Below are positions 9,663 to 63,120 of a stretch of DNA of 64,000 nucleotides, piece after piece. Below the pieces are notes generated by a model, which was given only the letters and a program-made list of their open reading frames with translations, did no database searches and was not told where the DNA came from. The first letter of the stretch is position 1. Each line of letters starts with the position of its first letter. Source of the stretch: Chromatiales bacterium (GTDB lineage Bacteria > Pseudomonadota > Gammaproteobacteria > JAGRGH01); assembly GCA_020445605.1 (NCBI GenBank), contig JAGRGH010000006.1, positions 69,465 to 133,464 of the forward strand. Direction: 5' to 3'. The position numbers and the translations under genes are program-made.

Positions 9663-9700
9663 CGAGCGGTTGTGATCGAGAGACAGGAATACCTTGGACG

Positions 9701-11217: not shown

Positions 11218-12152
11218 GCTTCGCCGAACCGTGGTGGCTCGCGCTGGGTGTGCTGCCGTGGCTGGCGCTGCGCGCAGTCGGCGCCGGTCCGGTCGGGCGC
11301 CGGCCACTGCTGCGCCATCCGTTCGCGGATCGGCTCGGCGTCGCGCAGCGCAGCGTCGCGCCGCGACGCAGCGGCTCACTGGCCGCCGCGCTGGGCTTCA
11401 GCCTGCTCGCCGTCGCGCTGGCGCGCCCGCAGACCGTCGGCGACTGGCTCGCCCCGCCGGTCGCGAGCCGGCAGATCGTCATGGTCGTCGACAGCTCGCA
11501 GAGCATGTCGATCCGCGACTATCGGCTCGGCGACGCGCCCGCCTCGCGCATGCAGGTGCTGCGCGCAACGCTGGCGCGGTTCGTCGGTGCACGGCGTGGC
11601 GACGAGTTCGCGCTGGTGAATTTCGCCACGCGCGCGGCGACCTTCCTGCCGATGACCCACGATGCGGATGTGGCGCTTTCCATGATCGAACGCCTGCGTG
11701 CCGGGCTCGGCGGCGACGACACGGCGATCGGCGACGGCATCGGGCTCGCGCTGCGCGAGATCACGGGTGCCGACGGCCCGCGTCCGGCCCTGCTGGTGTT
11801 CAGCGACGGTGAACAGAATGCCGGCGAGCTGTCGCTGGCCGAGGCCGGCGCCCTGGCCCGCGCCGCCGGCGTGCCGGTGTACGTGATCCGGGTCAGCGCC
11901 CGACCGCCACCCGAAACCGGCGCCGGCTACGACCTGCGCCGGCTCGCCGCTGACACCGGCGGGCGCTGGTTTCAGGCCGGCAGCGGCGCGGACCTGGACG
12001 CCGTGATCGCGACGGTCGGCGCACTCGAGCCCCTGGTACAGCGCGCGCCGACGCAGCGAGCGCAGATCGAGTGGTATCCGCCGCTCGTGTGGGCGGCCGC
12101 GACGCTGCTCGTGCTGGCCGCGGTCGCGCGCATCCGGCGCCTCGCGCGATGA
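11214..12152 (+). CDS. BatA-like von Willebrand factor A domain membrane protein
   Basis: GTG start overlapping upstream stop (GTGA); N-terminal TM pair (WWLALGVLPWLAL…), VWA MIDAS motif VMVVDSSQSMS…, C-terminal TM. Confidence 0.75.
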   Translation: MSFAEPWWLALGVLPWLALRAVGAGPVGRRPLLRHPFADRLGVAQRSVAPRRSGSLAAALGFSLLAVALARPQTVGDWLAPPVASRQIVMVVDSSQSMSIRDYRLGDAPASRMQVLRATLARFVGARRGDEFALVNFATRAATFLPMTHDADVALSMIERLRAGLGGDDTAIGDGIGLALREITGADGPRPALLVFSDGEQNAGELSLAEAGALARAAGVPVYVIRVSARPPPETGAGYDLRRLAADTGGRWFQAGSGADLDAVIATVGALEPLVQRAPTQRAQIEWYPPLVWAAATLLVLAAVARIRRLAR

Positions 12153-46596: not shown

Positions 46597-46774
46597 TCTT
46601 GAACGATGCAATTTCCTTAATGATGGCCACTTAGGCTACCGTCAGGGTTCGAACATCCGTCGGCGGTAATCGCCTGCGCGCACGGTACGGGCTTTGCCGC
46701 CGGCGCAACGACAACAAGACCCGACCCGCCCCGCGGGATCGCGAAACCTGCGAGCGACGAGGAGGAACGCCGAA

Positions 46775-48679
46775 TTGACCACCTACGCGGAGCTGTATCG
46801 GCAATCGCTGGACGACCCGGACGCGTTCTGGGGCCAGGCGGCGGATGCGATCGACTGGTCGACGCCGCCAACGCGGGTGCTGGACGCCGGCGCGCGCCCG
46901 GCCGCGCGCTGGTTCGGCGGTGGTCGGCTGAACTCCTGCCGCAACGCGCTGGACCGTCACGTCGACGCCGGCTGCGGTGATCGCGCGGCGCTGATCTACG
47001 ACTCCCCGGTCACCGCCCAAAAGCGGCGCTACAGCTACGCCGAACTGCGCGATGCCGTCGCGAAAGTGGCCGGCGCCCTGCACGATCTCGGCGTGCGGCG
47101 CGGCGACCGCGTGATCCTCTACATGCCGATGATTCCCGAGGCCGTGATGGCCATGCTCGCCTGTGCGCGCATCGGCGCGATCCACTCGGTGGTATTTGGG
47201 GGCTTCGCATCGAACGAACTCGCCACACGCATCGACGACGCGAAGCCGAAACTGATCATCGCGGCATCCTGCGGTATCGAACCGGGGCGCGTGGTCGAGT
47301 ACAAACCACTGCTCGACGCCGCCATCGACATGGCCCGCCACAAGCCCGACCACTGCCTTGTTTACCAGCGCGAACAGGCCAGCGCCGCGATGACACCCGG
47401 GCGCGACCGCGACTGGCTGGAGACCGTCGAAAACGCCGAACCGCAGCCCTGCGTGGAGGTCGAGGCGACCGACCCGCTGTACATCCTGTACACCTCGGGC
47501 ACCACCGGTCAGCCGAAAGGCGTGGTGCGCGACAACGGCGGTCATGCCGTCGCGATGACCTGGTCGATGCGCAACATCTACGACATCGGGCCCGGCGACG
47601 TGTTCTGGGCCGCCTCCGACGTCGGCTGGGTCGTCGGCCACAGCTACATCGTCTATGCGCCGCTGCTCACCGGCGCGACAACCCTACTCTACGAGGGCAA
47701 GCCGGTCGGCACGCCGGACGCCGGTGCGTTCTGGCGGGTCATCTCCGAATACGGCGTAAAGGCGCTGTTCACGGCGCCGACCGCGTTTCGCGCCATCAAG
47801 AAGGTGGATCCGAACGGCGAGTTCATCGGCCGCCATGACCTCGCCTGCATGCAGGCGCTGTTTCTGGCCGGCGAACGCTGCGATCCGGACACCCTGTTCT
47901 GGGCGCGCGACAAACTCGGCGTGCCGGTGGTCGATCACTGGTGGCAGACCGAGACCGGCTGGGCCATCGCGGCGAATCCGCTCGGGCTCGAACCGCATGA
48001 GCTCAAGCCCGGCTCGCCGAGCATCGCGATGCCCGGCTACGACGTTCAGGTGCTCGACGAGGAGACCGGCAAACCGGTCGCCGACGGCAACATGGGCAGC
48101 ATCGTGCTGAAACTGCCGATGCCGCCCGGCTGCCTGCCGACGCTGTGGAACAACGACGGGCGTTTCATCGACGCCTATCTGAAACGCTTCCCCGGGTACT
48201 ACCTGACGGGAGATGCCGGCTTTCGCGACAGCGACGGCTACCTGTGGATCATGAGCCGCACCGACGACGTGATCAACGTCGCCGGCCATCGCCTTTCGAC
48301 CGGGCAGATGGAAGAAGTCCTCGCCGGCCATCCGGCCGTCGCCGAATGCGCGGTGATCGGCGTGCAGGACCCGCTCAAGGGCCAGCTGCCGCTCGGACTC
48401 GTCGTGCTGCGCGCCGGGGTCGACCGGCCGGAGGCCGACGTCGTCAGGGAACTCGTCAAGCGCGTGCGCGACCAGATCGGACCGGTGGCTGCGTTCAAAC
48501 TCGCAACCGTCGTCTCAAGACTGCCCAAGACACGTTCGGGAAAGATCCTGCGCGGCACCATGGCGAAGATCGCCGACGGCGAAGCATGGAAGATGCCGGC
48601 CACCATCGACGATCCGGCCATTCTCGATGAAATCACCGCGGCGCTGAAGGGCCTCGGTTACGCAACGGGGAATACATGA
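46775..48679 (+). CDS. prpE: propionate--CoA ligase (propionyl-CoA synthetase)
   Basis: TTG start 8 nt downstream of GGAGGA; aligns end to end with enterobacterial PrpE (…[11 protein letters not shown]…, [38 protein letters not shown]). Confidence 0.9.
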
Positions 48680-49569
48680 ACCATTCCATGCCCAGTCCGG
48701 GCGCGCGACTGCGCGCGGCCCTGCGCGATGAAAGTCCCCTGCAGTGCGTCGGCGCGATCAACGCCTACCACGCACGGCTCGCCGAGGCCAGCGGATTCCG
48801 CTCCCTGTACATCTCCGGCGGCGGTGTCGCAGCCGGCTCGCGCGGCATCCCGGATCTCGGCATCACGACCATGAACGACGTGCTGGTCGATCTCGAACGC
48901 ATCACCGCCGTGACCGACCTGCCGGTGCTGGTCGACATCGATACCGGCTGGGGCGGCGCGTTCAACATCGCGCGCGCGATCCGTTCGATGATCCGCTGTG
49001 GTGCGGCGGCCGTGCATATCGAGGATCAGGTTCAGCAGAAGCGCTGCGGACATCGTCCGAACAAGGTCATCGTCGCGCAGTCGGAAATGGTCGACCGCAT
49101 CAAGGCCGCGGTCGACGCGAAGACCGATCCGGACTTCGTGATCATGGCCCGGACGGACGCGCTCGCCAGCGATGGGCTCGAAGCAGCGATCGAACGCGCC
49201 CGTGCCTGCGTGGAGGCCGGCGCCGACATGATCTTCCCCGAAGCCGTCACGACACTCGACGAATACCGCGCGTTCACCAACGCCGTCGGTGTTCCGGTGC
49301 TGGCGAACATCACGGAGTTCGGTTCGACGCCGTTGTTTACGGTCGAGGAACTAGCGTCGGCCGGTGTCGGCATCGCGCTGTATCCGCTGTCGGCTTTTCG
49401 CGCGGCAAATGCCGCCGCGCTGAACGTCTATCGCACGCTGCGCGCCGAGGGTACGCAGAAAGAGGTGATCCAGACCATGCAGACTCGCGCCGAGCTGTAT
49501 GACTTCCTCGATTATCACGCCTATGAACAGAAGCTCGATGCGCTGTTCGCAGGCTCTGACGAAGACTGA
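48676..49569 (+). CDS. prpB: 2-methylisocitrate lyase
   Basis: ATGA overlap with prpE; [39 protein letters not shown] blocks; 297 aa. Confidence 0.9.
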
Positions 49570-49581
49570 GAGAGAAACACC

Positions 49582-50733
49582 ATGAGCGAAACCGCCCAGA
49601 TTCTTCCCAAGGCCAAGAAATCCGTGGCCCTGTCCGGAACCGCGGCCGGCAATACGGCCATCTGCACCGTCGGGCGCACCGGCAACGACCTGCACTACCG
49701 CGGCTACAGCATCGAAGACCTTGCCGCACACTGCGAGTTCGAGGAAGTCGCGCACCTGATCGTGCACGGCCGCCTGCCGACACAGGCCGAGCTGACGGCC
49801 TACAAACAGAAGCTGCGCCGTCTGCGTGGACTGCCGATGCCGGTGCGAACCGCACTCGAGGCCCTGCCGCCGTCCACGCACCCCATGGATGTCATGCGTA
49901 CGGGTTGTTCAGTGCTCGGCAGCTGCATGCCGGAGTCCGAGGCGCACCCCGCCGCGGCCGCACGCGACATCATCGACCGGCTGATGGCGAGCTTCGGTTC
50001 CATGCTGCTGTACTGGTATCACTACGCCGCGAATGGCCGCCGCATCGATGTCGAGACCGACGATGACTCGATCGGCGGGCACTTCCTGCACCTGCTGCAC
50101 GGCAGGCCCCCCAGCGATTCGCTCGTGCGTGCGATGCACGTCTCGCTGGTGCTGTATGCCGAACACGAATTCAACGCTTCCACCTTCACCGCGCGCGTGG
50201 TCGCCGGCACGAATTCCGATCTGTATTCCTGCATCACCGCAGCCATCGGCGCGCTGCGCGGCCCCAAGCACGGCGGCGCCAACGAAGAGGCGTTTCGCGT
50301 ACAGAGTCGCTATCGCTCCGCCGACGAGGCGGAGGCCGACATCCGCGAGCGGGTCGGCCGCAAGGAAATCGTCATCGGTTTCGGCCACCCGGTCTATACC
50401 ATCGGCGATCCACGCAACCCCATCATCAAGGAGATCGCGCGCGAACTCAGCACGGCACGCGGCGACACAACCATGTTCGATGTCGCGGACCGGCTGGAGG
50501 CCGTGATGTGGGAAATCAAGAAGATGTTTCCGAACGCCGACTGGTTCTCCGCGGTTTCCTATCACATGATGGGTGTGCCGACCGAGATGTTCACGCCGCT
50601 GTTCGTGATCTCGCGCACCAGCGGCTGGGGTGCGCACGTCATCGAACAGCGCGAGGACGGCAAGATCATCCGTCCGTCGGCCTACTACACGGGACCGGAA
50701 AACCTCGGGTTCGTGCCGATCGACGCACGCTGA
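49582..50733 (+). CDS. prpC: 2-methylcitrate synthase
   Basis: 383 aa citrate-synthase fold (…[14 protein letters not shown]…; HGGANEEA). Confidence 0.9.
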
Positions 50734-50823: not shown

Positions 50824-53331
50824 TCAGCTGAGCGACGATTCGCTTGCGACCTGGTCGGCGTATTCACGCGCCAGCGCAAGGCCCTGATCGACCAGCTTTC
50901 GCAGCCGCGCGATGGTCTGCGGCGCCGCACGCCGGGACTCCTCAATCTCGCGGGCGAGCGCGCTGGCATCAGGCAGACCAATGTTTCCGCAGGTTCCGCG
51001 GATCGAGTGCGCGACCTGCGAACAACCATCCGCGTCCTGTGAACCGCAGGCTGCTTCGAGCCGGGCGAACAGCCCGTCGAGTTCACCCCGGGCCTGCGCG
51101 ACGACCGCGCGCACGAACCCCATATTGGCGCCGAGCGCATACATGGATTCGAGCTGCGCAGGGTCGAACATCCCCGTCTGCGTCCGGCGCGGCTCGACGG
51201 GTGCCGCCCTCGGTGCATGCAGGATCGACGGATCGACGCCGGCCGCCACGGCAACGGATTCGCACAGCAACACGCCATCGACCGGCTTGGTCATCACGCG
51301 CGCAATGCCCAGTTCGCGGGCGCGCTCGCGCAGATCGGTGGTCGCATCCGCGGTCAGCAGCACCCAACCCGGTGAATTCGCAGGATTCGTGAACTGGTAG
51401 GTCGAGAACACGTGCAGGCCATCGATGTCCGGCAGGTTGTAATCGAGCACCACGACGTCGGGCCGCATGGTTTCGAGCAGTTCCAGGGCTTCCAGCCCCG
51501 AGCGTGCTCCGATGCACTCGTGGCCAACCCGCTCGAGATGCCAGCGCGTGACCATGAGGTTCGCCTCGTTGTCCTCGATCACGAGAACCTTGAGCCGTTC
51601 CGCCGCCTGGCCGGCCTCGCCTTCGCGTACGGGCGCGACGGCGCGCAGATCCGCGCGCGTTCCGCGACAGGCATGCAGGGTGTTCCACAGTCGACCACGC
51701 TCGAACTGCGTACCCATTCGGTAACCGACGAGCCCGCTGCCCATCCATGCCGTCTCGAGCGCCTCGCCGTAAACGACGAATCCCGGACGCTCGGCCGGTT
51801 CGAGTTGCAGGAGGGTCTCGACCACGCGGCCAACTTCACCATGCGACGCGCGCCGCCCGGTGTGGAGCACGATGATGTCGTGATGAAAACCGCGCGCCGC
51901 GCTCGTGAGTACCCGCTCGCGCGCTGGCGAAACAGAGTCGAACGAATCGACACGCACGCCCCAGTTCGCCAGCGCCTCGCGAATGCCCGCGGTGTCGCCA
52001 CCGAGATCGATCAGCACCACGGCCACTCCGGTGAGACCGGCATCGCCGCCTTCCGCGGACTCTAGCCGCTGCAGGGGCAGATCGAACCAGAACGTCGAAC
52101 CCCGGCCAGGCGTCGAGCGCACAACAATGCGCCCGCCAAGCAGTTCGACCAGGTCCTTTGCAATCGTGGTGCCCAACCCGGTACCGCCATAACGACGCGT
52201 GGTCGAGGCGTCGGCCTGGGCAAACGGCGCGAAGATGCGCCCGGATTCCTCAGGCGTCATCCCAATGCCGGTGTCCGTGATCTCAAACCGCACCAGGCTT
52301 TCGCCCGCAACGCGCCGGACTTCACGTACATGACCGGTCACGGCGCCGTGATCGGTGAACTTGATCGCGTTGTTGACTAGATTCGTGACGATCTGCCGCA
52401 GCATCAGCGGGTCCGAACGCACCTGCCACGGCGCGCCCGCATCGATGTCCAGCGTGAACTCGAGTGCCTTGCCGTGCGCGAGCGGCTCGAACATGCGCCA
52501 GATCGAGCGCATCAGCGCGTGCAGGTTGAACTCGGCCGGATCCGGCGTGGTGCGGCCGGCTTCGATCTTGGAGATGTCCAGCACGTCATTGAGCAGCGCG
52601 AGCAACACGCGCGAGGCGTCGTGGGCGCTCTGGGCCACTTCGCGCTCGGCCTGCGGCAGTCGGCCGACCCGAAGCATGTCCGTAAGCCCGATGATTCCGT
52701 TCAGCGGGGTGCGGATCTCGTGACTCATGTTCGCGAGAAACCGGCTTTTCGCCTGGTTGGCATCCTCGGCCTGCTTGCGTGCCGCATCCAGACGCCGCAG
52801 CAAAACCCCCTGGTAGAGCGGAATCAGCGCCAGCCCGACCCACAACCCGATCGACAGCGGCAGAATGCCCTGCCAGGTCGGACTCGCGGCAATCACCGCC
52901 CCGAAGCCAACCAGCGACAGCATCATGCTGTAGTTGAGCAGCGACCGCCCGAAGCGCGCGCCCATGCCCACGATGACCCACAGGTAGATCAGATAAAACG
53001 GCCAGCCGAGTTCGCCGGCCAACGCCAGCGCCACACTGAGGCTCACGATATCCAGGGTTGCACAGACGTAGCGGCGCGCAATGACGATGCGCGGTTCGAC
53101 CAGCACCCAGGCGATCAACCCCAGCGCCACCAGCACATAGCCCGCCGCCATGAGCCGCGGAATGTGCAGGCCCTCGCCGCCCGGGTTGTAGATCAGAACC
53201 GCGATCGCAACGACGATCGAGATCGCCAGCCGGATCAGGGCCTGTTCGAACTCTCCGCCCGGCAGATCACGGGCGGATTTCAGACGCCCCGCGAACCCGA
53301 GCACGCGGTGCACGATCTCAGCCATGTGCAA
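50824..53331 (-). CDS. unorthodox hybrid sensor histidine kinase (multi-TM input – HisKA – HATPase – pseudo-receiver – receiver – HPt)
   Basis: 835 aa; ~6 TM N-terminal domain with no periplasmic domain; H-box [18 protein letters not shown]; HATPase [19 protein letters not shown]; [18 protein letters not shown]…[12 protein letters not shown]; C-terminal HPt ([17 protein letters not shown]); start overlaps the rSAM stop by 14 nt (alternative ATG 53325). Confidence 0.85.
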
Positions 53332-54808
53332 CCTTGGCCTGGCGGTTGGTTTCTTCGTCGCGCGCCGACAACTTCAGGGAGGCGGGCAGCGGCGCATCAT
53401 GAATGTCAAAGCGCGCGCGGCGCAGTGCAAGGTAGTCGTCGCGACGATCGATTTCGACCGGACCGATGCCGCCGGACATCGGGTGCAGATGCTGCTTTGC
53501 GGACAGTCGCGCGAGCGCGGCGATATTTCGTTCCTCGGGCGTGGCCAGCCGGCCGCTGCGCCAGAGAAACTCATAGTGCGAGACGTAGGCGTCGTACATC
53601 TGCGTTTCGAGTTCCCGCGTGCTCATGTTCGGATGATGCCATGTCGGACAGCCCCCGTCGAAGCGGTCCATGTTGGTCTCCCAGATCAGTCCGTCGCGGC
53701 GGAACTCCTCATACTGTTCGGTGCCCGGGATCGGCGTAAGGATGTAGAACGAAACGACCTTTGGCGCCAGCCCGCGCAGCGCCTCCAGGTGTTCGGCGAT
53801 CGACGCCGGCGTATCCTGCGGAAAACCGATGATGTTCGAGTAATGCGCGCGGATTCCGGCGGCCGCGCACTGCTCGATGATCGAGCGATAGGTCTCCGGG
53901 TGGTTGTGATATTTGTGCGCGGCCTTGAGCGTCGCGCGCGAAAACGACTCCACACCGACGAACATCTCAAAGCAACCCGCCCGACCAAGCAGTTCAATGA
54001 ACTCCGGCTGGCGCGCGACCACGGTGTCGCACTGGCAGAAAAATCGCAGGCCCAGGTCCTCCTCGATCATGGCCTCGAGAAGAGCCGGCGCACTCGGCGC
54101 CTTGTTGAAGTTGTCGGACACGAACATGACCGTCTCGACGCCGCCCGCACGCGCGCGACGCAGGCTCTCGATCGTCGCATCCACGGACTGTTCGCGCACC
54201 GCACGACCTGCGATCTGGATCACCGCGCAAAACTTGCACTGGTAGGGGCAGCCGCGCATCGGCACCAGGCCCACCATCGGCGAGAAGTAGCGTTTCAGGT
54301 CATCGCGGGACGGCGGCGTGATCGGCGTCGGCGGCAATTCGGTCGCCCAGCGCTGGCCCTCGCCATAGACGGCCTTGAGTCCATGACCAGCGGCGGCATC
54401 GGCGAGGATTTCCGGCCACACGCGTTCGGCTTCGGCCAGCGCGAAGCTCACCCCCCGGCCCTGCAAGGCCGAGGTGTCGCAGGTCATCGGGTGCGGGCCG
54501 CCGATCACGACGTTGCGCACGCCGCGATCCAGCGCCAGGGCGGCAAGATCGAGTGCACGATGAAACTGGTGCGACTGCACCCCGACCATCGCCACGAGCG
54601 TGTCGCGCCCCGCAAGCCAGTCCAGGTAGTCGAGATCGCAGTGCACGTACTCATCGACCATGCGCGTTTCGACCGGCCGGTCCGCGAACCGCGCCGGAGT
54701 GAGAGCGGCCAGGTGGGTCAGGGTCGCATTGGGCATGAAGCCGGTACGGAAGCGTTCCACGCTACCGCTGCGGGTGTACTTGCTCGGCTTGATCAACACT
54801 ACGCGCAC
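53318..54808 (-). CDS. B12-binding domain-containing radical SAM protein
   Basis: 496 aa; N-terminal cobalamin-binding-like Rossmann (MRVVLIKP…VIGGPHP), rSAM cluster CPYQCKFC (CxxxCxxC); RBS gggagga 5 nt upstream of the ATG. Confidence 0.85.
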
Positions 54809-55271: not shown

Positions 55272-55359
55272 CTTGGTTTTTTAAGGGAATTCAGAACCGT
55301 ATGCCGTACGCGTCGCCCACAAACTCCGGCCCATGCACGGGCTCTTCAGGACCTCGACC

Positions 55360-56559
55360 ATGACAGTAGCCATTACCGGGGTCGGGGTCGTGTCGTCACT
55401 GGGGATTGGCTTCCCGGCGTTTTCGGCGGCACTCGCACAAGGCCGCAGTTCGATCTCGCACTATGACGATCCGGTCAACGGCCGCAGCCGGCTCGCCGCG
55501 CGCATCGGCGACTGGGCGCCGGTACCCCCGCCCCCCGGCACCGGTCTCGGCAACGAGATTGATCCGGCCTGTCAGTACGCGCTGATCGCCGCGCGCGAGG
55601 CCGCGACCCGCGCGCGAGCACTCGAACGCCACGCCGACCGCGACCGGATCGGCGTCGTCGTCGGCTGTGCGGTGCCGGGCAAGATCGTCGACGACGCGGC
55701 CTATGCGAAGTTCTACGCGAATCCGACGCGACGTGTGCACCCGCTTTCGATCCCGCGAATCATGCCAAATGCAGCACCTTCGCTGATTGCGGCCGATCTG
55801 GAACTCGGTGGCACCGCCTATACGGTTTCAAGCGCCTGCACCTCTTCGCTGCACGCGCTGATGCTCGGCGCGACGCTCATCGAAACTGGCCTTGTCGACG
55901 CCGCGATCGTCGGCGGAACCGAGGCGCCATTTGCGCCCGGACTCATGGCGGGCTGGGACTCGATCGGCGTGCTGTCGAAGACCAGCTGCCGGCCGTTCGC
56001 CCCTGACCGCGACGGCACCGTGCTCGGCGAAGGTGCCGCGATGTTCGTATTGGAGTCTGCGCACCGCATCGGGCACGGCGCGATCGCGACAATCGCCGGC
56101 TACGGTGCAACGACCGGCCGCGGCGAAGTCGTCACCCCGGATACCGCGGCAGAAACCAGGGCCATGCGACAGGCGCTGCACGCGGCCGGGTGGTCAGGCG
56201 AGGATGTCGACTACATCGAATCCCACGGCACCGGCACCTGGGCCAACGACACCTCGGAGGCCGATGCCATTCATGCAACACTGGGCTCCGGCGCCGCAGT
56301 TTGGGTACCGGTCGGCGTACTGAAATCACGCATCGGTCACACGCTGGGCGCCGCCGGGGCATTTGCCTTGGCCGCCAGCCTGGCGCTCGCCCGCTCGCCA
56401 CAATGGAGCGGCCCGGAGTATGAATTCGATCCGGCGTTGCGCCTGTCACCAGCCGGCGGCCAGACCATCCGCCCGATCGACCGCAGCCTGGTCAATGCCT
56501 TCGGCTTCGGCGGTGCGAATCTAACGCTGGCCATCCGCCATGGAAGCGGCGGCAACTGA
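55360..56559 (+). CDS. beta-ketoacyl-[ACP] synthase, KAS I/II (FabB/FabF) family
   Basis: ORF 55333..56559 trimmed to MTVAITGVGVVS; active-site Cys in SSACTSSLHA, His in the ESHGTGT block, second His in the GHTLGAAG block; C-terminal NAFGFGGAN. Confidence 0.8.
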   Translation: MTVAITGVGVVSSLGIGFPAFSAALAQGRSSISHYDDPVNGRSRLAARIGDWAPVPPPPGTGLGNEIDPACQYALIAAREAATRARALERHADRDRIGVVVGCAVPGKIVDDAAYAKFYANPTRRVHPLSIPRIMPNAAPSLIAADLELGGTAYTVSSACTSSLHALMLGATLIETGLVDAAIVGGTEAPFAPGLMAGWDSIGVLSKTSCRPFAPDRDGTVLGEGAAMFVLESAHRIGHGAIATIAGYGATTGRGEVVTPDTAAETRAMRQALHAAGWSGEDVDYIESHGTGTWANDTSEADAIHATLGSGAAVWVPVGVLKSRIGHTLGAAGAFALAASLALARSPQWSGPEYEFDPALRLSPAGGQTIRPIDRSLVNAFGFGGANLTLAIRHGSGGN

Positions 56560-56607
56560 ACGCACCCATGCTCACATTCAATGACGCACGGTAGATCATC
56601 GATGGAA

Positions 56608-57396
56608 ATGCCAGAGAATCTTTTCAAGCGGGCTCTAAGGGCTGGCAAGGTTCAGTACGGACTCTGGCTGGGGCTCGGCGAGACGTTCAGTGCGGAGATC
56701 TGCGCCGGCGCCGGATTCGACTGGCTCCTGATCGATTCGGAACACGGGCCGAACGACCTGCGCAGCATTTTCGCCCAGCTCCAGGCGATTGCCCCGTACC
56801 GGTCGCAGCCGGTCGTCCGGCCGCCGCATGGTGACTCGGTGCTCATCAAGCAGCTGCTTGAAACGGGTGTGCAGACACTGCTCGTGCCGATGGTCGAAAC
56901 AGCCGAATATGCAGCCAACCTGGTACGAGCGATGCGATACCCCCCCGACGGCATTCGCGGCGTCGGCAGCGCGCTGGCACGCGCTTCGCGCTGGGGACGT
57001 GTCCCGGATTACATGGAGCGGTCGAACGACGAGATGTGTCTGCTGATCCAGATCGAAACCAAGACAGGCGTCGAAAACATCCACGAAATCCTCGGTGTCG
57101 ACGGTATCGATGGTGTGTTCTTTGGGGCGGTCGACCTCGCAGCATCCTACGGCCTGCTTGGCGAATCGACTCACCCGCGGGTTGTCGACACCATTGTGGA
57201 AGGCATCAGGACCGTGTGCGCCCGTGGGCTCTCCGCAGGCGTGCTGTGCAGCGACCCGGATCTGAACCGGCGCTACATCGAAGCGGGCGCCAACTTCGTC
57301 GCCGTTGGCGTCGACGCACTGCTGCTGGCGGCGGCCACCAGCGAGCTTTGCGGAAGGTATAAAAAGACCGAAGTCGACCTGTCGAACACCTATTGA
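56608..57396 (+). CDS. HpcH/HpaI-family aldolase (2-keto-3-deoxy-acid / 2,4-dihydroxyhept-2-enedioate aldolase-like)
   Basis: Trimmed to MPENLFKRALRAGKVQYGLWLGL (HpaI N-terminus pattern); DWLLIDSEHGP and divalent-metal ligands (…IQIET…, …FFGAVDLA…); alternative ATG 56581/56602. Confidence 0.8.
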   Translation: MPENLFKRALRAGKVQYGLWLGLGETFSAEICAGAGFDWLLIDSEHGPNDLRSIFAQLQAIAPYRSQPVVRPPHGDSVLIKQLLETGVQTLLVPMVETAEYAANLVRAMRYPPDGIRGVGSALARASRWGRVPDYMERSNDEMCLLIQIETKTGVENIHEILGVDGIDGVFFGAVDLAASYGLLGESTHPRVVDTIVEGIRTVCARGLSAGVLCSDPDLNRRYIEAGANFVAVGVDALLLAAATSELCGRYKKTEVDLSNTY

Positions 57397-57503: not shown

Positions 57504-58676
57504 ATGCATTCGGGCGCACCCCCAAAGAAAGCCACTCGCCTGTCGAGGATTCGTCCCTTCTACGTCATGGAGGTGCTGGAGAAGGCGTTCCGGATGGTGA
57601 CGAGTGGCGCGGATGTCATCCACCTGCAGATGGGTGAGCCGGACTTCAGCACCCCGGACCCCATCACCCGCGCCGGCATACGCGCGCTCGAGGAACGGCG
57701 CACGCGCTACACGCAGGCGCTGGGCATCCCCGAGCTGCGCGAGAAAATCGCGCTTTCCTATCCCGAGACCTGCCGACCACCCGTCGACCGCATCGCGGTG
57801 ACACCCGGCTCGTCGGCCGGACTGCAGATGGTCTTCGCATGCCTGGTTGATCCGGGCGACGAAGTACTGCTTGCAGACCCGAACTACCCGTGTAATTTCA
57901 ATTTCATCAAACTCTACGGCGGCAACCCGCGTGCATTGCCCGCGGATGCGTCAACCGGCTACCAGCTGACGGCCGAGATGATTCGTCACGCCTGGACGCC
58001 GCAGACACGCGCGGTGCTGATTGGATCGCCGTCCAATCCGACCGGTTCGGTCGTATCCCGGGAACAGATGGGCGCCATCGCCCGAACCGTGCGAGCGCTC
58101 GGTGGACATCTGATCGTCGACGAGATCTATCACGGCCTCGTCTATGACGCGGATCTTCGAAGTGCGTTGCACGATGGCGACGACATCTTCGTCGTCAACA
58201 GCTTCTCGAAGTTCTACGGGATGACCGGCTGGCGGCTGGGCTGGATGGTGGTGCCGGATGCATTCATCGACGAAATCACCCGCCTGACACAGAACCTGTT
58301 CATCTCCGCCAGCACGCCCGCGCAGTTTGCCGCGCTGCACGCGTTTGATGGCGAAACCCTGGACGAACTGGAACGCCGCAGGGCCCTGTTTCAGACCCGC
58401 CGCGACTTCTTCGTGCCCGCACTGCGCGAACTCGGATTCAGCGTCCCGCTGATGCCCCAAGGCGCGTTCTATGTCTATGCCGACAGCAGCCGGTTCAGTG
58501 ACGACAGCGACGCACTGGCCATGGACATGCTCGAAAAGGCCCTGGTCGGCAGCGCCCCGGGCAAGGACTTCGGCGCATATCGCCACCGGGAACATCTTCG
58601 TTTCAGCTACGCGAACTCCCTGGAAAACATTGAACGCGCCGTGGATCGGATGGCGGGCTACCTGAAACAACGGTAG
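57504..58676 (+). CDS. PLP-dependent aminotransferase, class I (AspAT-like fold type I)
   Basis: 390 aa; …IHLQMGEPDF…, …SPSNPTG…, PLP-Lys block NSFSKFYGMTGWRLGW. Confidence 0.85.
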   Translation: MHSGAPPKKATRLSRIRPFYVMEVLEKAFRMVTSGADVIHLQMGEPDFSTPDPITRAGIRALEERRTRYTQALGIPELREKIALSYPETCRPPVDRIAVTPGSSAGLQMVFACLVDPGDEVLLADPNYPCNFNFIKLYGGNPRALPADASTGYQLTAEMIRHAWTPQTRAVLIGSPSNPTGSVVSREQMGAIARTVRALGGHLIVDEIYHGLVYDADLRSALHDGDDIFVVNSFSKFYGMTGWRLGWMVVPDAFIDEITRLTQNLFISASTPAQFAALHAFDGETLDELERRRALFQTRRDFFVPALRELGFSVPLMPQGAFYVYADSSRFSDDSDALAMDMLEKALVGSAPGKDFGAYRHREHLRFSYANSLENIERAVDRMAGYLKQR

Positions 58677-58680
58677 GTGC

Positions 58681-59847
58681 ATGAACCGGGACAGGCTCAG
58701 ACTGCTGATCATCGGTGCCGGCGGTATCGGGGCGTATTACGCGGCCCGCCTGGTCGACGCCGGCCACCCCGCCACATTGCTCGCCCGCGGCGCGCATCTC
58801 GCGGCAATGCAACGAGGTGGCCTGCGGGTCGAACATCCCGATTTCGGATTCAGCGGTGCGGTCGATGCCCTCGATGCAGACGAACTGCTCACCTCGCGCG
58901 ACGCCGCGGATTTTGATCTCGTTCTGCTGACGACCAAGGCCAACAGCACGGTCGACCTGATGCGGCAGCTGGGGGACTGGATCATGTCCGGCCCGGGGCT
59001 GAGCGTGATGTCCTTGCAGAACGGGATCGATAACGAACCGGCCATCGCGGGCCGGCTCGGCCTGCCCCGCACGCTGGGCGGTCTCGCCGTGCGCATCGGC
59101 GGTCATGTCACGGAACCCGGACATGTAATCGCGACAGGGCCGGCGCAGGTGGTCTGTGGCGCCTGGCCGAACCACCATGCGAATTACGGTGTACCGACTG
59201 AACGGATTCCGGCCGGCGAACTACTGGAGACCGGCGAGCGGGTCCGTTTCACGATCCCGACCGGACACGTGATCGAACTCTATGCACGGAAGACGGCCAC
59301 CGGCGGCACCTTGCCCGCAGTCAATCCCGAGGCATGGTCTCCCGAGGCGGAGCACGGCATCGCGCCGATCCGCATGGACCACATCCTGCTCTATGGCCCG
59401 GATATCGACGGAGCGCACGCCATCTTCCGTGACGTACTCGGCTTCTATCTGGTCGAGCACATCGTCCAGGACGACGAATCAGATCTGGCGATCTGGTTGT
59501 CCTGCTCGATCAAGGCGCACGACATTGCGTTCGTTAAACACGACGAGCCCGGCAAGCTGCATCACATCGCGTTCGTGCTGGAAACCTGGGAAAAGGTGCT
59601 GCGCGCGGCTGACCTGATGTCCATGCATCGCGTACCCATCGACATCGGCCCGACCCGCCACGGCGTGACACGTGGCACCACGATCTATGCGTTCGATCCG
59701 TCGGGCAACCGCTTCGAGACCTACTGCGGTGGCTACCAGCCCTACCCGGACTGGCAACCAACGAAATGGACAATGGAGGAAATCGGCGCGGGCATCTTCT
59801 ATCACAACCGCCAGCTGAACGAAGCGTTCCTCACCGTCCTGACGTAG
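58681..59847 (+). CDS. chimeric protein: ketopantoate-reductase (PanE/ApbA) N-terminal Rossmann domain fused to the catalytic C-terminal domain of a catechol 2,3-dioxygenase-type extradiol dioxygenase
   Basis: Residues 1-~160 LLIIGAGGIGAYYAARL…VLLTTKANST…SLQNGIDNE (ApbA_N); residues ~170-388 align with the XylE catalytic domain (…VRFTIPTGHVIELYA…VNPEAWSPE…IRMDHILLYGPDIDGAHAIFRDVLGFYLVEH…SIKAHDIAFVKH…KLHHIAFVLETWEKVLRAADLMSMHRVPIDIGPTRHGVTRGTTIYAFDPSGNRFETYCGGY…IFYHNRQLNEAFLTVLT); single uninterrupted 388-codon ORF. Confidence 0.75.
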   Translation: MNRDRLRLLIIGAGGIGAYYAARLVDAGHPATLLARGAHLAAMQRGGLRVEHPDFGFSGAVDALDADELLTSRDAADFDLVLLTTKANSTVDLMRQLGDWIMSGPGLSVMSLQNGIDNEPAIAGRLGLPRTLGGLAVRIGGHVTEPGHVIATGPAQVVCGAWPNHHANYGVPTERIPAGELLETGERVRFTIPTGHVIELYARKTATGGTLPAVNPEAWSPEAEHGIAPIRMDHILLYGPDIDGAHAIFRDVLGFYLVEHIVQDDESDLAIWLSCSIKAHDIAFVKHDEPGKLHHIAFVLETWEKVLRAADLMSMHRVPIDIGPTRHGVTRGTTIYAFDPSGNRFETYCGGYQPYPDWQPTKWTMEEIGAGIFYHNRQLNEAFLTVLT

Positions 59848-60012
59848 GAAAATTTCGGCTTGGGGATATGCGCGACGCAGTGGGCGTTTCCTGGCGGTCA
59901 GGGCACAGATCGAGCACGACGGCCCCGTCAGGGCCTGCCGACCGAGCTGTACAACCAGAGCGGCATCAATGAACCGAAGGGGCAGAACTGGCTGCCAATC
60001 AACCGGCCCCCG

Positions 60013-63000
60013 TCATTCTGCTCGATGCTCCAGTTCCGCCTCCAGTCGCTTCTGGATCTGCTTTGGGGAGCCGGTCTTGCGTGCGAACAGCTCATAGGAC
60101 GTCGGCACGACGAACAACGTAAACAGGGTCGCCGCCAGCACACCGTAGAGCACCACCGTGCCGATGACCGCACGGGTTTCGGCGCCAGCCCCTTCTGAGA
60201 TCAGCAGCGGCAACGACCCTGCCGCTGTCGTGATGCCGGTCATGACGATCGGTCTGAAACGCACGCGAGTGGCTTCTATCAGTGCATCGTGCAACTGTTC
60301 CCCCTGATCGCGCAGCTGGTTGGCGAACTCCACGATCAGAATGCCGTTTTTCGCGGCAAGCCCGACCAGCATGATCAGACCGATCTGGCTGTAGACGTTC
60401 AGGGTCTGGTCTGTCAGGTGCAACCCCAGCAGTGCACCTGCCATTGCCAGCGGCACCGTCAGCATGATGACGAGCGGATGTATCCAGCTTTCGAACTGCG
60501 CGGCCAGCACCAGGTACACCACCAACACTCCCATGACCAGCACAAACACGATCGACTGCGCGCTGGTTTTGAAGTCACGCGACTGACCCTTGTAGTCGAC
60601 GATGACCTTCCCGGGCAGATTTTCCGCAACCAGGTTGTCCAGATACTCCAGCGCCTTGCCGAGCGATACGTCATCTTCCAGATTCGCTTCCAGTGTGATA
60701 CTGCGAACCCGGTTGAACCGATTGAGCTTGATGGAGTCCGCCACTTCCTCGAGGGTCACCAGACTCGCCAGTGGAATGAGCTTGCCGCTGCCCTGTGACC
60801 GAACGTACAGGTTGCTGAGATCAGTCGTAGTGCGCTGATCGGAGGCCTCGCCCTCCAGTATGACGTCATACTCCTCACCTTCTTCGATGTATGTGGTCAC
60901 CCGACGCGAGCCAAGCATGGTCTCCAGCGTGCGACCGATCTCACCAACCGTCACACCAAGGTCCGCCGCGCGGTCATAGTCGATCAACACCTGCAACTGC
61001 GGTTTGGTTTCCTTGTAATCCCAGTCCAGACCGACCAGCCCGGGGTTCGACGCGTTGATCCTGTCCAGCAGGATATCGCGCCATTGCACCAGTTCGTCGT
61101 AGGTGCCGCCCCCGATCACGTATTGCACCGGCTTCTGTATACGTGCGCCGAACCCCTGACGCATGACGGGGAACGCGCGCACGCCGGACAAGCCGCTCAG
61201 CCGCTTGCGCACGTCATCCATGATCGCCCAGGCCGAGCGCCGGTCGCGCCAGTCGCTCAGCACATTGATGACGATTCCGCTGTTGAAAATCTCAAAGTTG
61301 CTGAATGTTCTCGGCGCGCGAACCAGCAGCCGCGAGACCTCGCCCGCCTCTACCAGGGGCATCATGCGTCTTTCGATTTCATCCATGTAATCCTTCATGT
61401 AATCGTATGTCGCCCCTTCCGGCCCGTTGACCAGCACAAAGAATGCGCCACGATCCTCCTTCGGGGCATATTCGCTGGGAATCTGTTCGATCAGCCAATA
61501 CGTCGCGTACAGCATGCCGACAAACACCAGGCCAACCACCCACTTGGCCCGCAACGCCACCTTCAGAACGGCGAGGTAACCATTGCGCAGCTTGCCGAAC
61601 ACCACGTCCACACCATGCGCCAGACTGGCCTTGCCCGCATCCTCGGGCATGATCTGTGAAGCCAGCATGGGCGACAGAGACAATGCCACGAAGCTAGAGA
61701 ACGCCACCGCTGCCGCCATGGTCAGCGCAAATTCGGAAAACAGTCGGCCGACATCGCCCTGCAGGAATGCTATCGGTACAAACACCGCAACGAGTACAAC
61801 GGTCGTTGCGATGACGGCGAAGGCGACCTGTCGAGAACCGCGATAGGCGGCGACGAGCCGGCTCTCGCCGTACTGATCCATTCGTCGGTGGATGTTCTCC
61901 AGAACCACGATCGCATCATCCACCACCAGACCGATCGCCAGCACCAATGCCAGCAGGGTCAGAATGTTGATCGAAAAGCCCAGCATCCACAGCACCAGGG
62001 AAGTCGCAATCAATGACACCGGCACGGTCACGGCCGGCACGATGGTCGCGCGAAAACTGCCCAGGAACACAAAGATCACCAGCACCACAAGCCCGATGGC
62101 GATCGACAAGGTTTTGTAGACCTCCTCGATCGCCCCCTTCACAAACACCGAGGTGTCATAGCTCTGCTTTATGGTCATCCCTTCAGGCAGAACGGGATTG
62201 ATCCTGGCCATTTCCGCCTTGGCCGCATCGGCGACGTCAATGGTGTTTGCGGTGGACTGCTTGATGATGCCGATGCCGACCATCGGCACGCCATTTCCGC
62301 GGAAAAACGTGCGCGATTCATCGGAACCTTTCTCAACCCTGGCCACATCCCCCAGCCTGACGAGGTATCCATTCTCACCACGGACGAGCACGAGTCTGGC
62401 GAAATCCTCGGCGTGTTTGAACAGCCGGGAAACCCGCACCGTGAACTGGCGGTCGACCGAGTCCAGACTGCCTGCGGGCAGTTCGAGATTCTCTTCCCGA
62501 AGGGCCTTTTCCACATCCGCCACCGAAAGATTTCTGGCTGCCAGGGCCTTGCGATCCAGCCAGATCCGCATGGCAAAGGTCTGGCCGCCACCGACCCTGA
62601 CACGCGCTACACCATCCAGCACGGAGAAGCGGTCGACCAGATAACGCCTCGCATAGTCGGACAACTCCGGCACGGTCATGCGATCGCTGACCAGGTTCAG
62701 CCACATGATCACATCGTCATTGCTGTCGACTTTCTGGATTTCCGGCGGGTCCGCTTCATCCGGCAGATCCGCCAGCACGGTGGACACCCGGTCCCGAACA
62801 TCATTCGCGGCGCCGTCAAGGTCACGCGACACATCGAATTCAATGGTGATGGCGGATCGTCCATCCTCGCTGGTCGATTCCATGAAACGAATGCCCTCGA
62901 CTCCCGCAAGGCGGTCCTCGATCACTTGCGTGATTCGGCTCTCGATAACGTTCGCCGCCGCGCCGGGGTAGATCGTTTCGACCGAAACCACGGGTGGATC

Positions 63001-63120
63001 GATGTCCGGATACTCGCGCAGTGGCAGCCGATCGAACGCCACCAGACCAAACGCTATGAGGAGGAGCGACATGACCGATGCGAACACCGGTCGGGTGATC
63101 GAAACATCGGAGAGGACCAT
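60013..63120 (-). CDS. RND multidrug efflux transporter permease (HAE1/AcrB family)
   Basis: 1035 aa, 12 TM with two large periplasmic loops; start overlaps the stop of the upstream MFP gene. Confidence 0.95.
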   Translation of the reverse strand: MVLSDVSITRPVFASVMSLLLIAFGLVAFDRLPLREYPDIDPPVVSVETIYPGAAANVIESRITQVIEDRLAGVEGIRFMESTSEDGRSAITIEFDVSRDLDGAANDVRDRVSTVLADLPDEADPPEIQKVDSNDDVIMWLNLVSDRMTVPELSDYARRYLVDRFSVLDGVARVRVGGGQTFAMRIWLDRKALAARNLSVADVEKALREENLELPAGSLDSVDRQFTVRVSRLFKHAEDFARLVLVRGENGYLVRLGDVARVEKGSDESRTFFRGNGVPMVGIGIIKQSTANTIDVADAAKAEMARINPVLPEGMTIKQSYDTSVFVKGAIEEVYKTLSIAIGLVVLVIFVFLGSFRATIVPAVTVPVSLIATSLVLWMLGFSINILTLLALVLAIGLVVDDAIVVLENIHRRMDQYGESRLVAAYRGSRQVAFAVIATTVVLVAVFVPIAFLQGDVGRLFSEFALTMAAAVAFSSFVALSLSPMLASQIMPEDAGKASLAHGVDVVFGKLRNGYLAVLKVALRAKWVVGLVFVGMLYATYWLIEQIPSEYAPKEDRGAFFVLVNGPEGATYDYMKDYMDEIERRMMPLVEAGEVSRLLVRAPRTFSNFEIFNSGIVINVLSDWRDRRSAWAIMDDVRKRLSGLSGVRAFPVMRQGFGARIQKPVQYVIGGGTYDELVQWRDILLDRINASNPGLVGLDWDYKETKPQLQVLIDYDRAADLGVTVGEIGRTLETMLGSRRVTTYIEEGEEYDVILEGEASDQRTTTDLSNLYVRSQGSGKLIPLASLVTLEEVADSIKLNRFNRVRSITLEANLEDDVSLGKALEYLDNLVAENLPGKVIVDYKGQSRDFKTSAQSIVFVLVMGVLVVYLVLAAQFESWIHPLVIMLTVPLAMAGALLGLHLTDQTLNVYSQIGLIMLVGLAAKNGILIVEFANQLRDQGEQLHDALIEATRVRFRPIVMTGITTAAGSLPLLISEGAGAETRAVIGTVVLYGVLAATLFTLFVVPTSYELFARKTGSPKQIQKRLEAELEHRAE

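Follow-up and report, generated by a model that had tools for sequence, protein, structure and literature searches.

Does an open reading frame in which a ketopantoate reductase (PanE/ApbA) Rossmann domain runs directly into a catechol 2,3-dioxygenase (C23O) encode a new kind of enzyme, or is it what remains of a recombination accident? This question is raised by a gene near one end of the window, by which we mean the whole 64-kb stretch of DNA that was analysed. The chimera is real, as a first-pass annotation made from the letters alone had proposed: the front half of a ketopantoate-reductase-like gene is joined in frame to the back two-thirds of a C23O gene. In our view it is, most likely, the product of a recent recombination accident rather than a new kind of enzyme.

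The chimeric open reading frame

The reading frame and its parts, the first taken from the ORF listing and the sequence, are the following.

58681 to 59847, forward strand: chimeric ORF of 388 aa with an ATG start and a TAG stop
58681 to 59184, forward strand: PanE/ApbA-derived half, residues 1-168, a complete NAD(P)-binding Rossmann domain, ApbA_C absent
59173 to 59187, forward strand: breakpoint zone, codons 165-169 (H-H-A-N-Y), from protein and codon comparisons among the chimera, L095 (PanE) and the C23Os of L014, L010 and L011
59185 to 59370, forward strand: remnant of the C23O N-terminal VOC domain plus inter-domain linker, residues 169-230, from a partial PF22247 match, the 3hpv/1mpy alignment and AlphaFold
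59371 to 59844, forward strand: complete C23O catalytic domain and C-terminal tail, residues 231-388, from PF00903 and TIGR03211

The public record of the protein, MCB1864075.1, is annotated "VOC family protein [Chromatiales bacterium]", an automatic label that masks the chimera. The identical protein is encoded on ~27 contigs in several assemblies, and in ENA and Logan assemblies we retrieved six loci that cover the junction and match the window at 99.98-100% identity over 5-10 kb; the chimera is therefore not an artefact of one assembly. Given this level of identity, the fetched contigs represent one near-clonal population, and the 90% cluster of the protein has one member. As a marker of expression of the chimera, the peptide VVCGAWPNHHANYGVPTER may serve as an example.

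The PanE/ApbA half

An ApbA N-terminal domain was expected in the first ~160 residues, and the domain scan finds it: in Pfam, PF02558 matches residues 9-163 over profile positions 2-149 of 150 (E 1.9e-28), with 99 bits against a cut-off of 22. The NCBIfam model TIGR00745 (apbA_panE) aligns residues 8-166 with profile positions 2-154 of 305, its whole-protein score of 83.1 bits lying under the PanE/ApbA family cut-off of 141.35, and in a PDB sequence search PanE structures match residues 6-166 only. The half carries the Rossmann motif G12-x-G14-x-x-G17 together with K86 and N114, the equivalents of Lys72 and Asn98 in the PanE/ApbA family, and these five residues fit columns that are 99-100% conserved among 75 full-length PanE representatives. 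Measured against the same representatives, 24 of the 26 conserved columns are kept, and the two deviations equal the family mean of 2.04. The closest relatives of this half are only 52-58% identical to it; the full-length PanE of the related locus L095 shares 56% identity with residues 4-174, the identity running through '...GAWPN'.

With the PanE/ApbA family (E. coli PanE; PF02558 plus PF08546) the chimera has the complete N-terminal NAD(P)-binding domain in common, but it lacks the whole C-terminal helical domain PF08546 (ApbA_C), for which Pfam gives no match in the protein. In PanE the catalytic residues Lys176 and Glu256 sit in this helical domain (PMC3478992, PMC10127515). Because the domain with the catalytic general-acid lysine and the glutamate is gone, PanE chemistry is lost and 2-oxoacids would no longer be reduced; the Rossmann half is probably still able to bind NAD(P)(H). 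Short ApbA-only matches of 176-218 aa looked like a standalone PanE N-domain family. This family was rejected, since an ApbA_C ORF lies directly downstream of these matches, which are therefore ordinary PanE genes split by frameshifts in low-coverage assemblies.

The catechol 2,3-dioxygenase half

The description of the C-terminal ~220 residues as XylE-type is borne out by sequence matches to PDB entries and by profile matches. Residues 168-388 align with residues 88-309 of the LapB C23O (3hpv_A, E 7e-96), and residues 87-307 of XylE (1mpy_A, E 6e-77) align to the chimera as well. TIGR03211 (catechol_2_3, NCBIfam) covers residues 167-388 with profile positions 82-303 of 303 (E 5.5e-92), a match that is not full-length and that scores 308.3 bits, under the equivalog cut-off of 320.2, and the glyoxalase model PF00903 matches residues 231-346 (E 6.6e-18). 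The match scores of both halves lie far outside what chance would give. Two intact environmental C23Os (P0002 and P0003) are 86-89% identical to this half, and the best Foldseek matches of the predicted fold are 3hpy, 3hpv and 1mpy.

The 2-His-1-carboxylate set of Fe(II) ligands is present as H234 (MDH), H295 (LHH) and E346 (RFE), and so are the second-sphere residues H280 (KAHD), H327 (TRHG) and Y336 (IYAFD). With the offset of 81 between chimera and XylE numbering given by the 1mpy alignment, they fall on His153, His214 and Glu265 and on His199, His246 and Tyr255, the iron ligands and second-sphere residues of XylE. The motifs LHHIAF (at 293), IDIGPTRHG and RFETY (at 344) are in place; a further motif had been quoted as IYFFDPSGNR and reads IYAFDPSGNR in the sequence.

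The first-pass annotation also held that the non-catalytic N-terminal VOC module had been replaced by the Rossmann domain. This applies to the first ~87 residues, which comprise module 1 and the beta-alpha start of module 2, but not to residues 169-230: because the C23O part begins at residue ~88, inside the N-terminal domain, three orphan beta-strands (predicted by AlphaFold at 173-176, 187-191 and 197-201) and the linker remain. In agreement with this partial domain, Diox-like_N (PF22247) matches residues 168-204 with only profile positions 23-59 of 60. Class II extradiol dioxygenases possess two complete VOC domains, i.e. four beta-alpha-beta-beta-beta modules (PMC6880040, also for the relationship between class I and class II enzymes), whereas the chimera lacks C23O residues 1-87 and has three strands left of the N-domain. 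XylE of Pseudomonas putida mt-2 (1mpy) and LapB of Pseudomonas sp. KL28 (3hpv), both type I class II two-domain extradiol dioxygenases (TIGR03211), align with it from residue 87/88 to the C-terminus without large gaps and have their N-terminal ~87 residues where the chimera has the Rossmann domain instead.

The small BphC enzymes of Rhodococcus globerulus P6 are one-domain (class I) extradiol dioxygenases, and they provide a precedent for a lone VOC catalytic domain that is active in ring cleavage without a non-catalytic N-terminal domain. These enzymes are, however, independent small proteins with their own oligomer interfaces, unlike the chimera, in which a class II-derived catalytic domain is combined with a broken N-domain remnant and an unrelated Rossmann domain of 168 residues. 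From the residues that it conserves, the C-terminal half might retain catechol cleavage, provided that the truncated protein is able to fold and assemble.

The junction, base composition and structure prediction

PanE identity stops at N164, or possibly at N168, where the AAT codon is the same as in L095, and C23O identity starts at Y169 (TAC, nucleotide 59185), which corresponds to Tyr88 of XylE. The chimera has a single junction, with PanE homology up to '...GPAQVVCGAWPN' and C23O homology from 'YGVPTERIPAGE', which is C23O residue 88/89. At the nucleotide level, blastn homology to C23O loci starts at 59180-59197 and ends at the stop codon of the chimera. No insertion sequence, inverted or direct repeat or mobile-element signature was found at the junction or flanking the C23O segment. 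Both breakpoints lie at structural boundaries: the PanE part breaks off where the Rossmann domain ends, and the C23O part starts where a helix gives way to a strand.

GC3 is ~0.79 in both halves (0.788 in the C23O half) and 0.75-0.83 in the neighbouring genes, and codon usage is host-like. By these two measures of composition, a foreign origin of the C23O half receives no support.

In two AlphaFold runs the pTM was 0.50-0.54, and therefore no packing of the two halves against each other is predicted with confidence. In the first run, a mixed alignment placed full-length PanE sequences over the C23O half and the pLDDT of this half was 30-60, which we treat as an artefact of the alignment. In the second run, with PanE fragments restricted to the N-domain, the C23O half reached a pLDDT of 60-90, with residues 130-167 degraded. 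We give these models no weight on the stability of the chimera.

Gene neighbourhood and related loci

The chimera closes a co-directional run and faces a convergent gene.

55333 to 56559, forward strand: FabF-like beta-ketoacyl synthase, with which the co-directional run opens (PF00109, PF02801; TIGR03150 236 bits, under the cut-off)
56581 to 57396, forward strand: HpcH/HpaI-family aldolase (PF03328, E 3.9e-51; TIGR02311 HpaI 361 bits, cut-off 368.8)
57504 to 58676, forward strand: class I/II aminotransferase with its TAG stop 4 nt before the ATG of the chimera
59848 to 60012, no strand: 165-bp spacer from the stop of the chimera to the stop of the convergent gene
60013 to 63120, reverse strand: AcrB-type RND pump gene, convergent with the chimera

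Given the 4 nt that separate the aminotransferase stop from the chimera start, the two genes probably share a transcript and have coupled translation. In L095, an aminotransferase fragment that is 61% identical is followed directly by a full-length, two-domain PanE of 321 aa; the PanE half of the chimera and this intact PanE thus occupy the same place, directly 3' of an aminotransferase gene. On the dioxygenase side, the C23O gene is also the last gene before a convergent gene in the relatives L010, L011 and L013, and in L010 a Fer2 gene of the XylT ferredoxin type lies upstream of the intact C23O relative. Around aminotransferases with 40-66% identity in GTDB genomes, none of 80 loci has the ketoacyl synthase, the HpaI-like aldolase, PanE or C23O beside the aminotransferase.

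Using full-length PanE and C23O proteins as tblastn queries, we found in the 165-bp spacer neither a trace of ApbA_C nor of a gene usually located 3' of C23O, and full-length queries detected neither an ApbA_C segment nor C23O residues 1-87 anywhere in the window. The absence of the missing halves excludes two adjacent whole genes as well as the product of a reciprocal inversion within the window, and the latter was rejected as an origin on this ground.

In contrast to the XylE and LapB systems, the chimera locus lacks an XylT-type ferredoxin and downstream meta-pathway genes: no meta-cleavage pathway gene or XylT-type ferredoxin was found among the scanned genes of the window or in the 10 kb beyond, and the sole meta-pathway-related neighbour is the HpaI-like aldolase two genes upstream of the chimera. 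A few kb downstream there is a series of toxin-antitoxin modules.

Distribution of the architecture

A search for the same fusion in other genomes yielded no second protein with the PanE_N::C23O architecture, although the search could have overlooked fusions that sit within 50% clusters or whose C23O half is less than ~70% identical. Among the top 120 matches of the full-length chimera, the chimera protein itself is the only one with this architecture, and an exhaustive search with residues 1-230 against 1.84 billion representatives gave no junction-spanning match among the 150 best listed. Metagenome loci related to PanE_N carry ApbA_C in 55 of 80 cases and a C23O segment in none, and no record among 72,556 plasmids covers the junction. 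The negative results of word-indexed searches with sub-queries are given little weight, because these searches missed the query's own protein and favoured short targets. Recurrence in at least two diverged lineages, by which a 'Rosetta-stone' fusion family would be recognised, was not found, and a literature search returned no report of a PanE-extradiol fusion.

Divergence of the dioxygenase half

On the window branch, the C23O half has a dN of 0.036-0.043 and a dN/dS of ~0.07, level with the dN of 0.033-0.040 of the intact sister gene in L014. A phase without constraint, if there was one, is limited to ~0.014 substitutions per site, or roughly 0.034 at most, on a branch with a dS of ~0.6. Polarised amino-acid changes in the catalytic domain number 12 on the window branch versus 4 (p = 0.077), a hint of a slight excess. 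Relaxed constraint on the orphan N-domain remnant was considered and rejected, with 3 changes on the window branch versus 4 on the sister branch. The lack of decay in the C23O half (dN/dS ~0.07) means that either the event is very recent or the dioxygenase half is still under selection for its ordinary ring-cleaving activity.

Origin of the chimera

Combining the junction, neighbourhood and distribution data, we suggest, with a probability of about 0.6, that the gene is a lineage-specific chimera generated by one illegitimate-recombination event, the simplest such event being a deletion between two co-oriented resident genes. Seen directly are the junction, the absence of both lost halves and the intactness of the remaining sequence. 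In the ancestral state, the run of ketoacyl synthase, HpaI-like aldolase and aminotransferase would have ended in a two-domain PanE-family 2-oxoacid reductase. The event would have placed codon ~88 of a resident C23O gene in frame behind codon ~165-168 of this gene, with the loss of (i) the helical domain of PanE, (ii) anything between both genes and (iii) the first 87 codons of the dioxygenase. As the final cistron, 3' of the aminotransferase, the chimera would still be transcribed and translated, and its two halves would be without mechanistic coupling. That the gene is the relic of a deletion had been offered by the first-pass annotation beside a functional reading, and the deletion is favoured by the single junction, the absence of the missing halves, the intact aminotransferase-PanE pair in L095 and the host-like composition. 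Deletion and illegitimate recombination between neighbouring genes are well known to give rise to chimeric genes in bacteria and, like chimeras of this class, the gene has one in-frame junction, has lost the sequence in between, is confined to one population and shows no sign of a mobile element. It differs from them in that the event is one that we infer rather than observe, because the order PanE then C23O was found in no genome searched, and no sister genome with this order came to light. Against an accident speak the intact ORF, a dN on the window branch equal to that of the sister gene in L014, the bound on any unconstrained phase, the retention of the six C23O active-site residues and of the PanE GxGxxG, lysine and asparagine, and the position of the breakpoints at structural boundaries, which is also what a selected, foldable fusion would be expected to have.

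Alternatively, the fusion may be functional and maintained, with the Rossmann module structurally replacing the lost part of the N-domain and the extradiol dioxygenase still at work, perhaps with NAD(P)-dependent regulation or binding of a nucleotide-linked substrate. The complete, in-frame ORF, the conservation of all Fe ligands and second-sphere residues, a dN/dS of ~0.07 without acceleration relative to the intact sister gene, intact PanE_N motifs, adaptation of both halves to the codon usage of the host, tight coupling to the upstream aminotransferase, breakpoints at secondary-structure or domain boundaries and the sufficiency, in principle, of a lone catalytic domain are all in line with this model. 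We nevertheless consider it unlikely. The architecture occurs in one near-clonal population and has no diverged homologue; the PanE half is without ApbA_C; the C23O breakpoint lies inside a domain and leaves three orphan strands of a broken VOC fold; AlphaFold does not place the halves relative to each other with confidence; of meta-cleavage partners and XylT-type ferredoxin, only the HpaI-like aldolase is nearby; and the catalytic domain shows 12 versus 4 changes on the window branch. It is distinctly unlikely that the chimera is a maintained and active extradiol dioxygenase in which the NAD(P)-binding domain now stands in structurally for the lost VOC module; such a protein might also be subject to nucleotide-dependent regulation or channel products of the upstream aldolase and aminotransferase. 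Neither the delivery of reducing equivalents to the ring-cleavage site by the Rossmann domain, i.e. NAD(P)H-to-iron coupling, nor the binding of a nucleotide-linked substrate next to this site, both suggested earlier, finds support. As a hydride donor, NAD(P)H gives up two electrons, oxidised C23O iron is reactivated by a one-electron [2Fe-2S] ferredoxin of the XylT type and, to our knowledge, a Rossmann domain without flavin or another one-electron carrier is unable to reduce Fe(III).

A history in two steps, in which horizontal transfer or a mobile element brought in a C23O fragment that inserted into the PanE gene and took the place of its 3' half, is very unlikely in our view. The region looks plastic in that 80 related genomes do not share the gene order around the aminotransferase, toxin-antitoxin modules lie nearby and C23O genes are common on conjugative plasmids; the GC3 and codon usage of the C23O half are, however, indistinguishable from those of host genes, the segment is without flanking insertion sequence or repeats, and a second deletion would be needed because a 3' remnant of PanE is absent downstream of the insert. 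This scenario differs from a deletion between resident genes in history only and makes the same prediction for the behaviour of the product. Hardly any credence can be given to an assembly or sequencing artefact, be it a chimeric contig or a frameshift that masks two ordinary genes. The window is metagenome-derived and the contigs may all trace to one study re-assembled by several pipelines, but the same junction is present in the six fetched loci and on the ~27 contigs, which come from ENA k141-type, scaffold-type and Logan per-run assemblies and from different samples, and the parent families have no repeat in common that could mislead an assembler. Nor does any frameshift restore two ordinary genes, because PanE lacks ~140 aa and C23O 87 aa here.

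If the chimera is only the young accident that we favour, it matters little beyond being a clean example of the birth of an in-frame chimeric ORF in a bacterial genome; it opens no long-standing question, and new chemistry is unsupported. If it is maintained and active, it would constitute a natural domain-replacement experiment. A soluble and active protein would imply that a class II extradiol dioxygenase can have most of its non-catalytic N-terminal domain replaced by an unrelated fold, which would hold some interest for enzyme engineers and for the study of how new domain architectures arise.

Domain composition of the chimera

The chimera is the last gene of a co-directional run of four genes:

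55333-56559, + strand: FabF-like ketoacyl synthase, first gene of the run
56581-57396, + strand: HpcH-family aldolase, scoring 361 bits with the HpaI (4-hydroxy-2-oxoheptanedioate aldolase) equivalog model, slightly under its cut-off of 368.8
57504-58676, + strand: class I/II aminotransferase, third gene of the run
58681-59847, + strand: chimeric ORF with an ATG start, 388 codons and a TAG stop

Pfam, NCBIfam and PDB-sequence matches agree with the first-pass annotation that a PanE Rossmann domain is joined in frame to catechol 2,3-dioxygenase (C23O). The HMM scan places a full-length ApbA domain, i.e. the N-terminal Rossmann domain of PanE, at residues 9-163 (Pfam, E 1.9e-28), followed by a partial Diox-like_N match at residues 168-204, covering 23-59 of its 60 profile positions, and by a Glyoxalase/VOC domain (residues 231-346). 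In NCBIfam, the PanE model TIGR00745 matches residues 8-166 only (profile 2-154 of 305), and the catechol 2,3-dioxygenase model TIGR03211 matches residues 167-388 (profile 82-303 of 303, E 5.5e-92) with 308 bits, slightly below the 320-bit equivalog cut-off. Similarly, several PanE structures align by their N-terminal halves with residues 6-166, and residues 88-309 of LapB (3hpv, E 7e-96) and 87-307 of XylE (1mpy) align with residues 168-388. The front part of the N-terminal C23O domain is thus gone, as had been proposed; the domain is not replaced as a unit, however, in that the C23O segment starts at about residue 88, which lies within the non-catalytic N-terminal domain and not at the boundary of the catalytic domain.

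Junction and authenticity of the sequence

PanE-family homology extends through "...GPAQVVCGAWPN" (residues 154-164) and C23O homology begins at "YGVPTERIPAGELLETGERVRF" (residue 169 onward, window nucleotide 59185). The four intervening codons, H-H-A-N, have no confident assignment to either parent; the N168 codon, AAT, is that of the PanE gene in L095, a metagenome contig with an intact PanE locus. DNA similarity to intact C23O genes (81% for locus L014, 76% for L011 and 74% for L010) starts at 59180-59197 and stops at the stop codon.

That the chimera is an assembly artefact is very unlikely. The exact protein has a public record (MCB1864075.1, "VOC family protein [Chromatiales bacterium]") and is present on ~27 contigs. 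ENA and Logan assemblies of various samples supplied six loci in which the chimera is identical, gene order is as in the window and identity is 99.98-100% across 5-10 kb. The sole differences, both in L003, are at window positions 60902 (C>A) and 60921 (T>C) in an AcrB-type gene on the - strand, leaving no population polymorphism usable for a pN/pS test. The junction has no repeat able to mislead an assembler. A frameshift hiding two ordinary genes, for which a check had been proposed, is not borne out: the ~140 PanE residues of ApbA_C and the first 87 residues of C23O are absent from the ORF, the 165-bp downstream spacer and the whole window, and therefore no frameshift could yield two ordinary genes. 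Given the near-identity of all contigs, the carriers of the chimera are one near-clonal population and not independent lineages.

Distribution of the architecture

The check for the same fusion in other genomes gave no second case among the collections searched. In a full-length search of 5.8 billion proteins, PF02558 and PF00903 occur together only in the chimera itself among the top 120 matches, the other 119 being ~309-aa C23Os at 57% query coverage; fusions with a C23O half less than ~70% identical would rank below these. An exhaustive phmmer search with residues 1-230 against 1.84 billion cluster representatives, a library that does not contain the chimera itself and in which other fusions may hide inside C23O clusters, gave 150 best matches that are all one-sided, with none across positions 166-168. 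Among 80 metagenome loci encoding relatives of the PanE N-terminal domain, none has the C23O segment and 55 have a normal ApbA_C. No plasmid records cover the junction, and the 90% cluster of the chimera has one member. Two short-query word-indexed searches did not recover the chimera and are given little weight. A candidate family of standalone ApbA proteins of 176-199 aa (L007 8001-8943, L009 8001-8944) was rejected; these loci hold normal PanE genes that frameshifts have broken up in assemblies of low coverage (e.g. 3x).

State of the two halves

The PanE half retains the GxGxxG motif (G12, G14, G17) as well as K86 and N114, which correspond to Lys72 and Asn98 in E. coli. Of 26 columns conserved across 75 full-length PanE representatives, it keeps 24, i.e. 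two deviations compared to a family mean of 2.04. The general-acid Lys176 and Glu256 of PanE are located in the helical domain that is missing here (PMC3478992, PMC10127515) and, therefore, canonical 2-oxoacid reduction by the chimera is not expected. Judged from its sequence, the chimera has probably lost PanE function.

In the C23O half, the Fe ligands H234, H295 and E346 and the second-sphere residues H280, H327 and Y336 are all kept. The chimera deviates at 6 of 126 columns that are ≥95% conserved, with five of the six changes conservative; this exceeds the mean of 1.1 for typical homologues, but the homologues used as controls are a tight cluster, without the chimera's sister lineages. 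Pairwise dN/dS against L014 is 0.064. In three-point estimates, dN is 0.036-0.043 on the window branch versus 0.033-0.040 on that of the intact sister, with dS ~0.6 per branch. For polarised amino-acid changes, the counts are 15 versus 8 overall (p = 0.21); the catalytic domain has 12 versus 4 (p = 0.077) and the orphan remnant 3 versus 4. Read literally, this excess limits any unconstrained period to ~0.014 substitutions per site (roughly 0.034 at most), which amounts to a few per cent of the branch. These comparisons leave two possibilities, a young fusion or continued selection on the dioxygenase half, which are not separable because there is no second lineage with the fusion. The catalytic domain is sequence-intact; its activity is uncertain.

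Two AlphaFold runs with differently built alignments gave a confident Rossmann domain in the first (pLDDT > 90 for residues 10-160) and a moderately confident C23O half in the second (pLDDT 60-90). Foldseek matches the second model best to 3hpy, 3hpv and 1mpy, across ~210-220 residues. Three predicted strands (173-176, 187-191, 197-201) and a linker precede a catalytic domain of two beta-alpha-beta-beta-beta modules (231-286 and 292-349), consistent with the four modules described for class II extradiol dioxygenases (PMC6880040). With a pTM of only 0.50-0.54 in both runs, no inter-domain arrangement is predicted and, since unrelated sequences were forced into shared columns of both alignments, the models say nothing on stability. 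They are consistent with two independent modules.

Gene context and ancestry

The aminotransferase stop lies 4 nt upstream of the chimera ATG. The 2.3-kb contig L095 (JAAUXZ010002706.1) carries, at positions 1-1135, the intact counterpart of this gene pair: the 3' end of an aminotransferase (61% identity to that in the window) is followed directly by a full-length 321-aa two-domain PanE with 56-58% identity to the N-terminal half of the chimera (56% over residues 4-174). Downstream genes in L095 are convergent, and one looks GST-like. This adjacency, together with the tight coupling in the window, argues that the PanE half descends from an ordinary two-domain reductase that was the native last gene of the run. 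A 4-hydroxy-2-oxoacid-making aldolase, a transaminase and a PanE-type 2-oxoacid reductase are a chemically coherent set, and the pairing of aldolase and ketopantoate reductase has been used synthetically (PMC10127515), which fits an intact PanE as a former member of the run.

The intact C23Os closest to the chimera, P0002 (same sample series) and P0003, are 86-89% identical. L010, L011 and L013, the three intact-C23O contigs that extend far enough downstream, match the window in that C23O comes last and a convergent gene follows. GC3 is 0.79 in both halves and 0.75-0.83 in surrounding genes, and codon usage is alike; the C23O part is therefore no recent import from a donor of different composition. 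The intact C23O in L010 has a Fer2 gene directly upstream, whereas the chimera has no such ferredoxin; the window contains neither catechol meta-cleavage genes nor a XylT-type ferredoxin. The HpcH-family aldolase is the only other gene near the chimera from a meta-cleavage-pathway family. In a Marinobacter sp. MAG (L008 3976-8946, JAKRQR010000020.1), a PanE-like gene, frameshift-split in the assembly, ends a meta-cleavage-type cluster with a DmpG-like aldolase, DSBA, GST and 4-oxalocrotonate tautomerase; reductases of this PanE-like subfamily can thus lie beside aromatic meta-pathway genes.

On the 3' side, the chimera faces a convergent RND pump and adaptor. A dense toxin-antitoxin-type run (HTH_26, MazE/PIN, Fic-domain, ParE toxin, HipA_C) lies beyond the 3' end of the window and extends to ~6 kb past it (L001 15513-20958). 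Following the chimera by a few kb, this run points to a region that is plastic or resembles an island. Remaining window genes concern propionate/methylcitrate, UvrA, a carbamoyltransferase and polysaccharide synthesis. At 46694-50733 (+), an acyl-CoA synthetase (ACAS_N and AMP-binding) and, after it, PEP_mutase/ICL-family and citrate-synthase-family genes have an arrangement similar to that of a prpE-prpB-prpC methylcitrate-cycle cluster. Divergent from the ketoacyl synthase is a B12-binding radical SAM protein (53318-54808, -), the best NCBIfam matches of which (PhpK-family P-methyltransferase, HpnJ, lipid-biosynthesis rSAM) are all far under cut-offs. Six long ORFs (7017-8144, 8550-9662, 9659-10732, 12071-13762, 13759-15207, 29625-31040) have no Pfam match at E ≤ 1e-5; they have coding-like GC3 (0.73-0.86) and lie in or beside the glycosyltransferase-rich polysaccharide-biosynthesis region.

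Origin and function of the chimera

Combining these data, we suggest, with a probability of roughly 0.6, that the gene is a young, lineage-specific chimera generated by one in-frame illegitimate recombination, in which PanE function is probably lost, the dioxygenase domain is sequence-intact and the halves are most likely not functionally coupled. A single event of this kind would suffice and, in its simplest form, would be a deletion between co-oriented resident genes. The idea of a deletion relic joining two genes is favored in that a single event explains the data and the missing halves are absent; the lack of decay in the C23O half speaks against it, and we infer the deletion, because PanE-C23O neighbours in the pre-fusion state were found in no genome examined. 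A two-step origin involving foreign DNA is less parsimonious and we regard it as improbable.

Alternatively, the chimera is a maintained functional fusion. In favor of this possibility are the lack of decay, breakpoints that fall on structural boundaries and the fact that one-domain extradiol dioxygenases exist; we nevertheless consider it rather unlikely. In the form first put forward, with the Rossmann domain delivering reducing equivalents to the ring-cleavage site, it is mechanistically implausible, as feeding reducing equivalents to the iron site would need a one-electron carrier. We favor the young chimera formed in one event. The domain combination is new insofar as a second example was not found; both parent families are well known, as is the kind of accident that joined them, and it occurs in one population.
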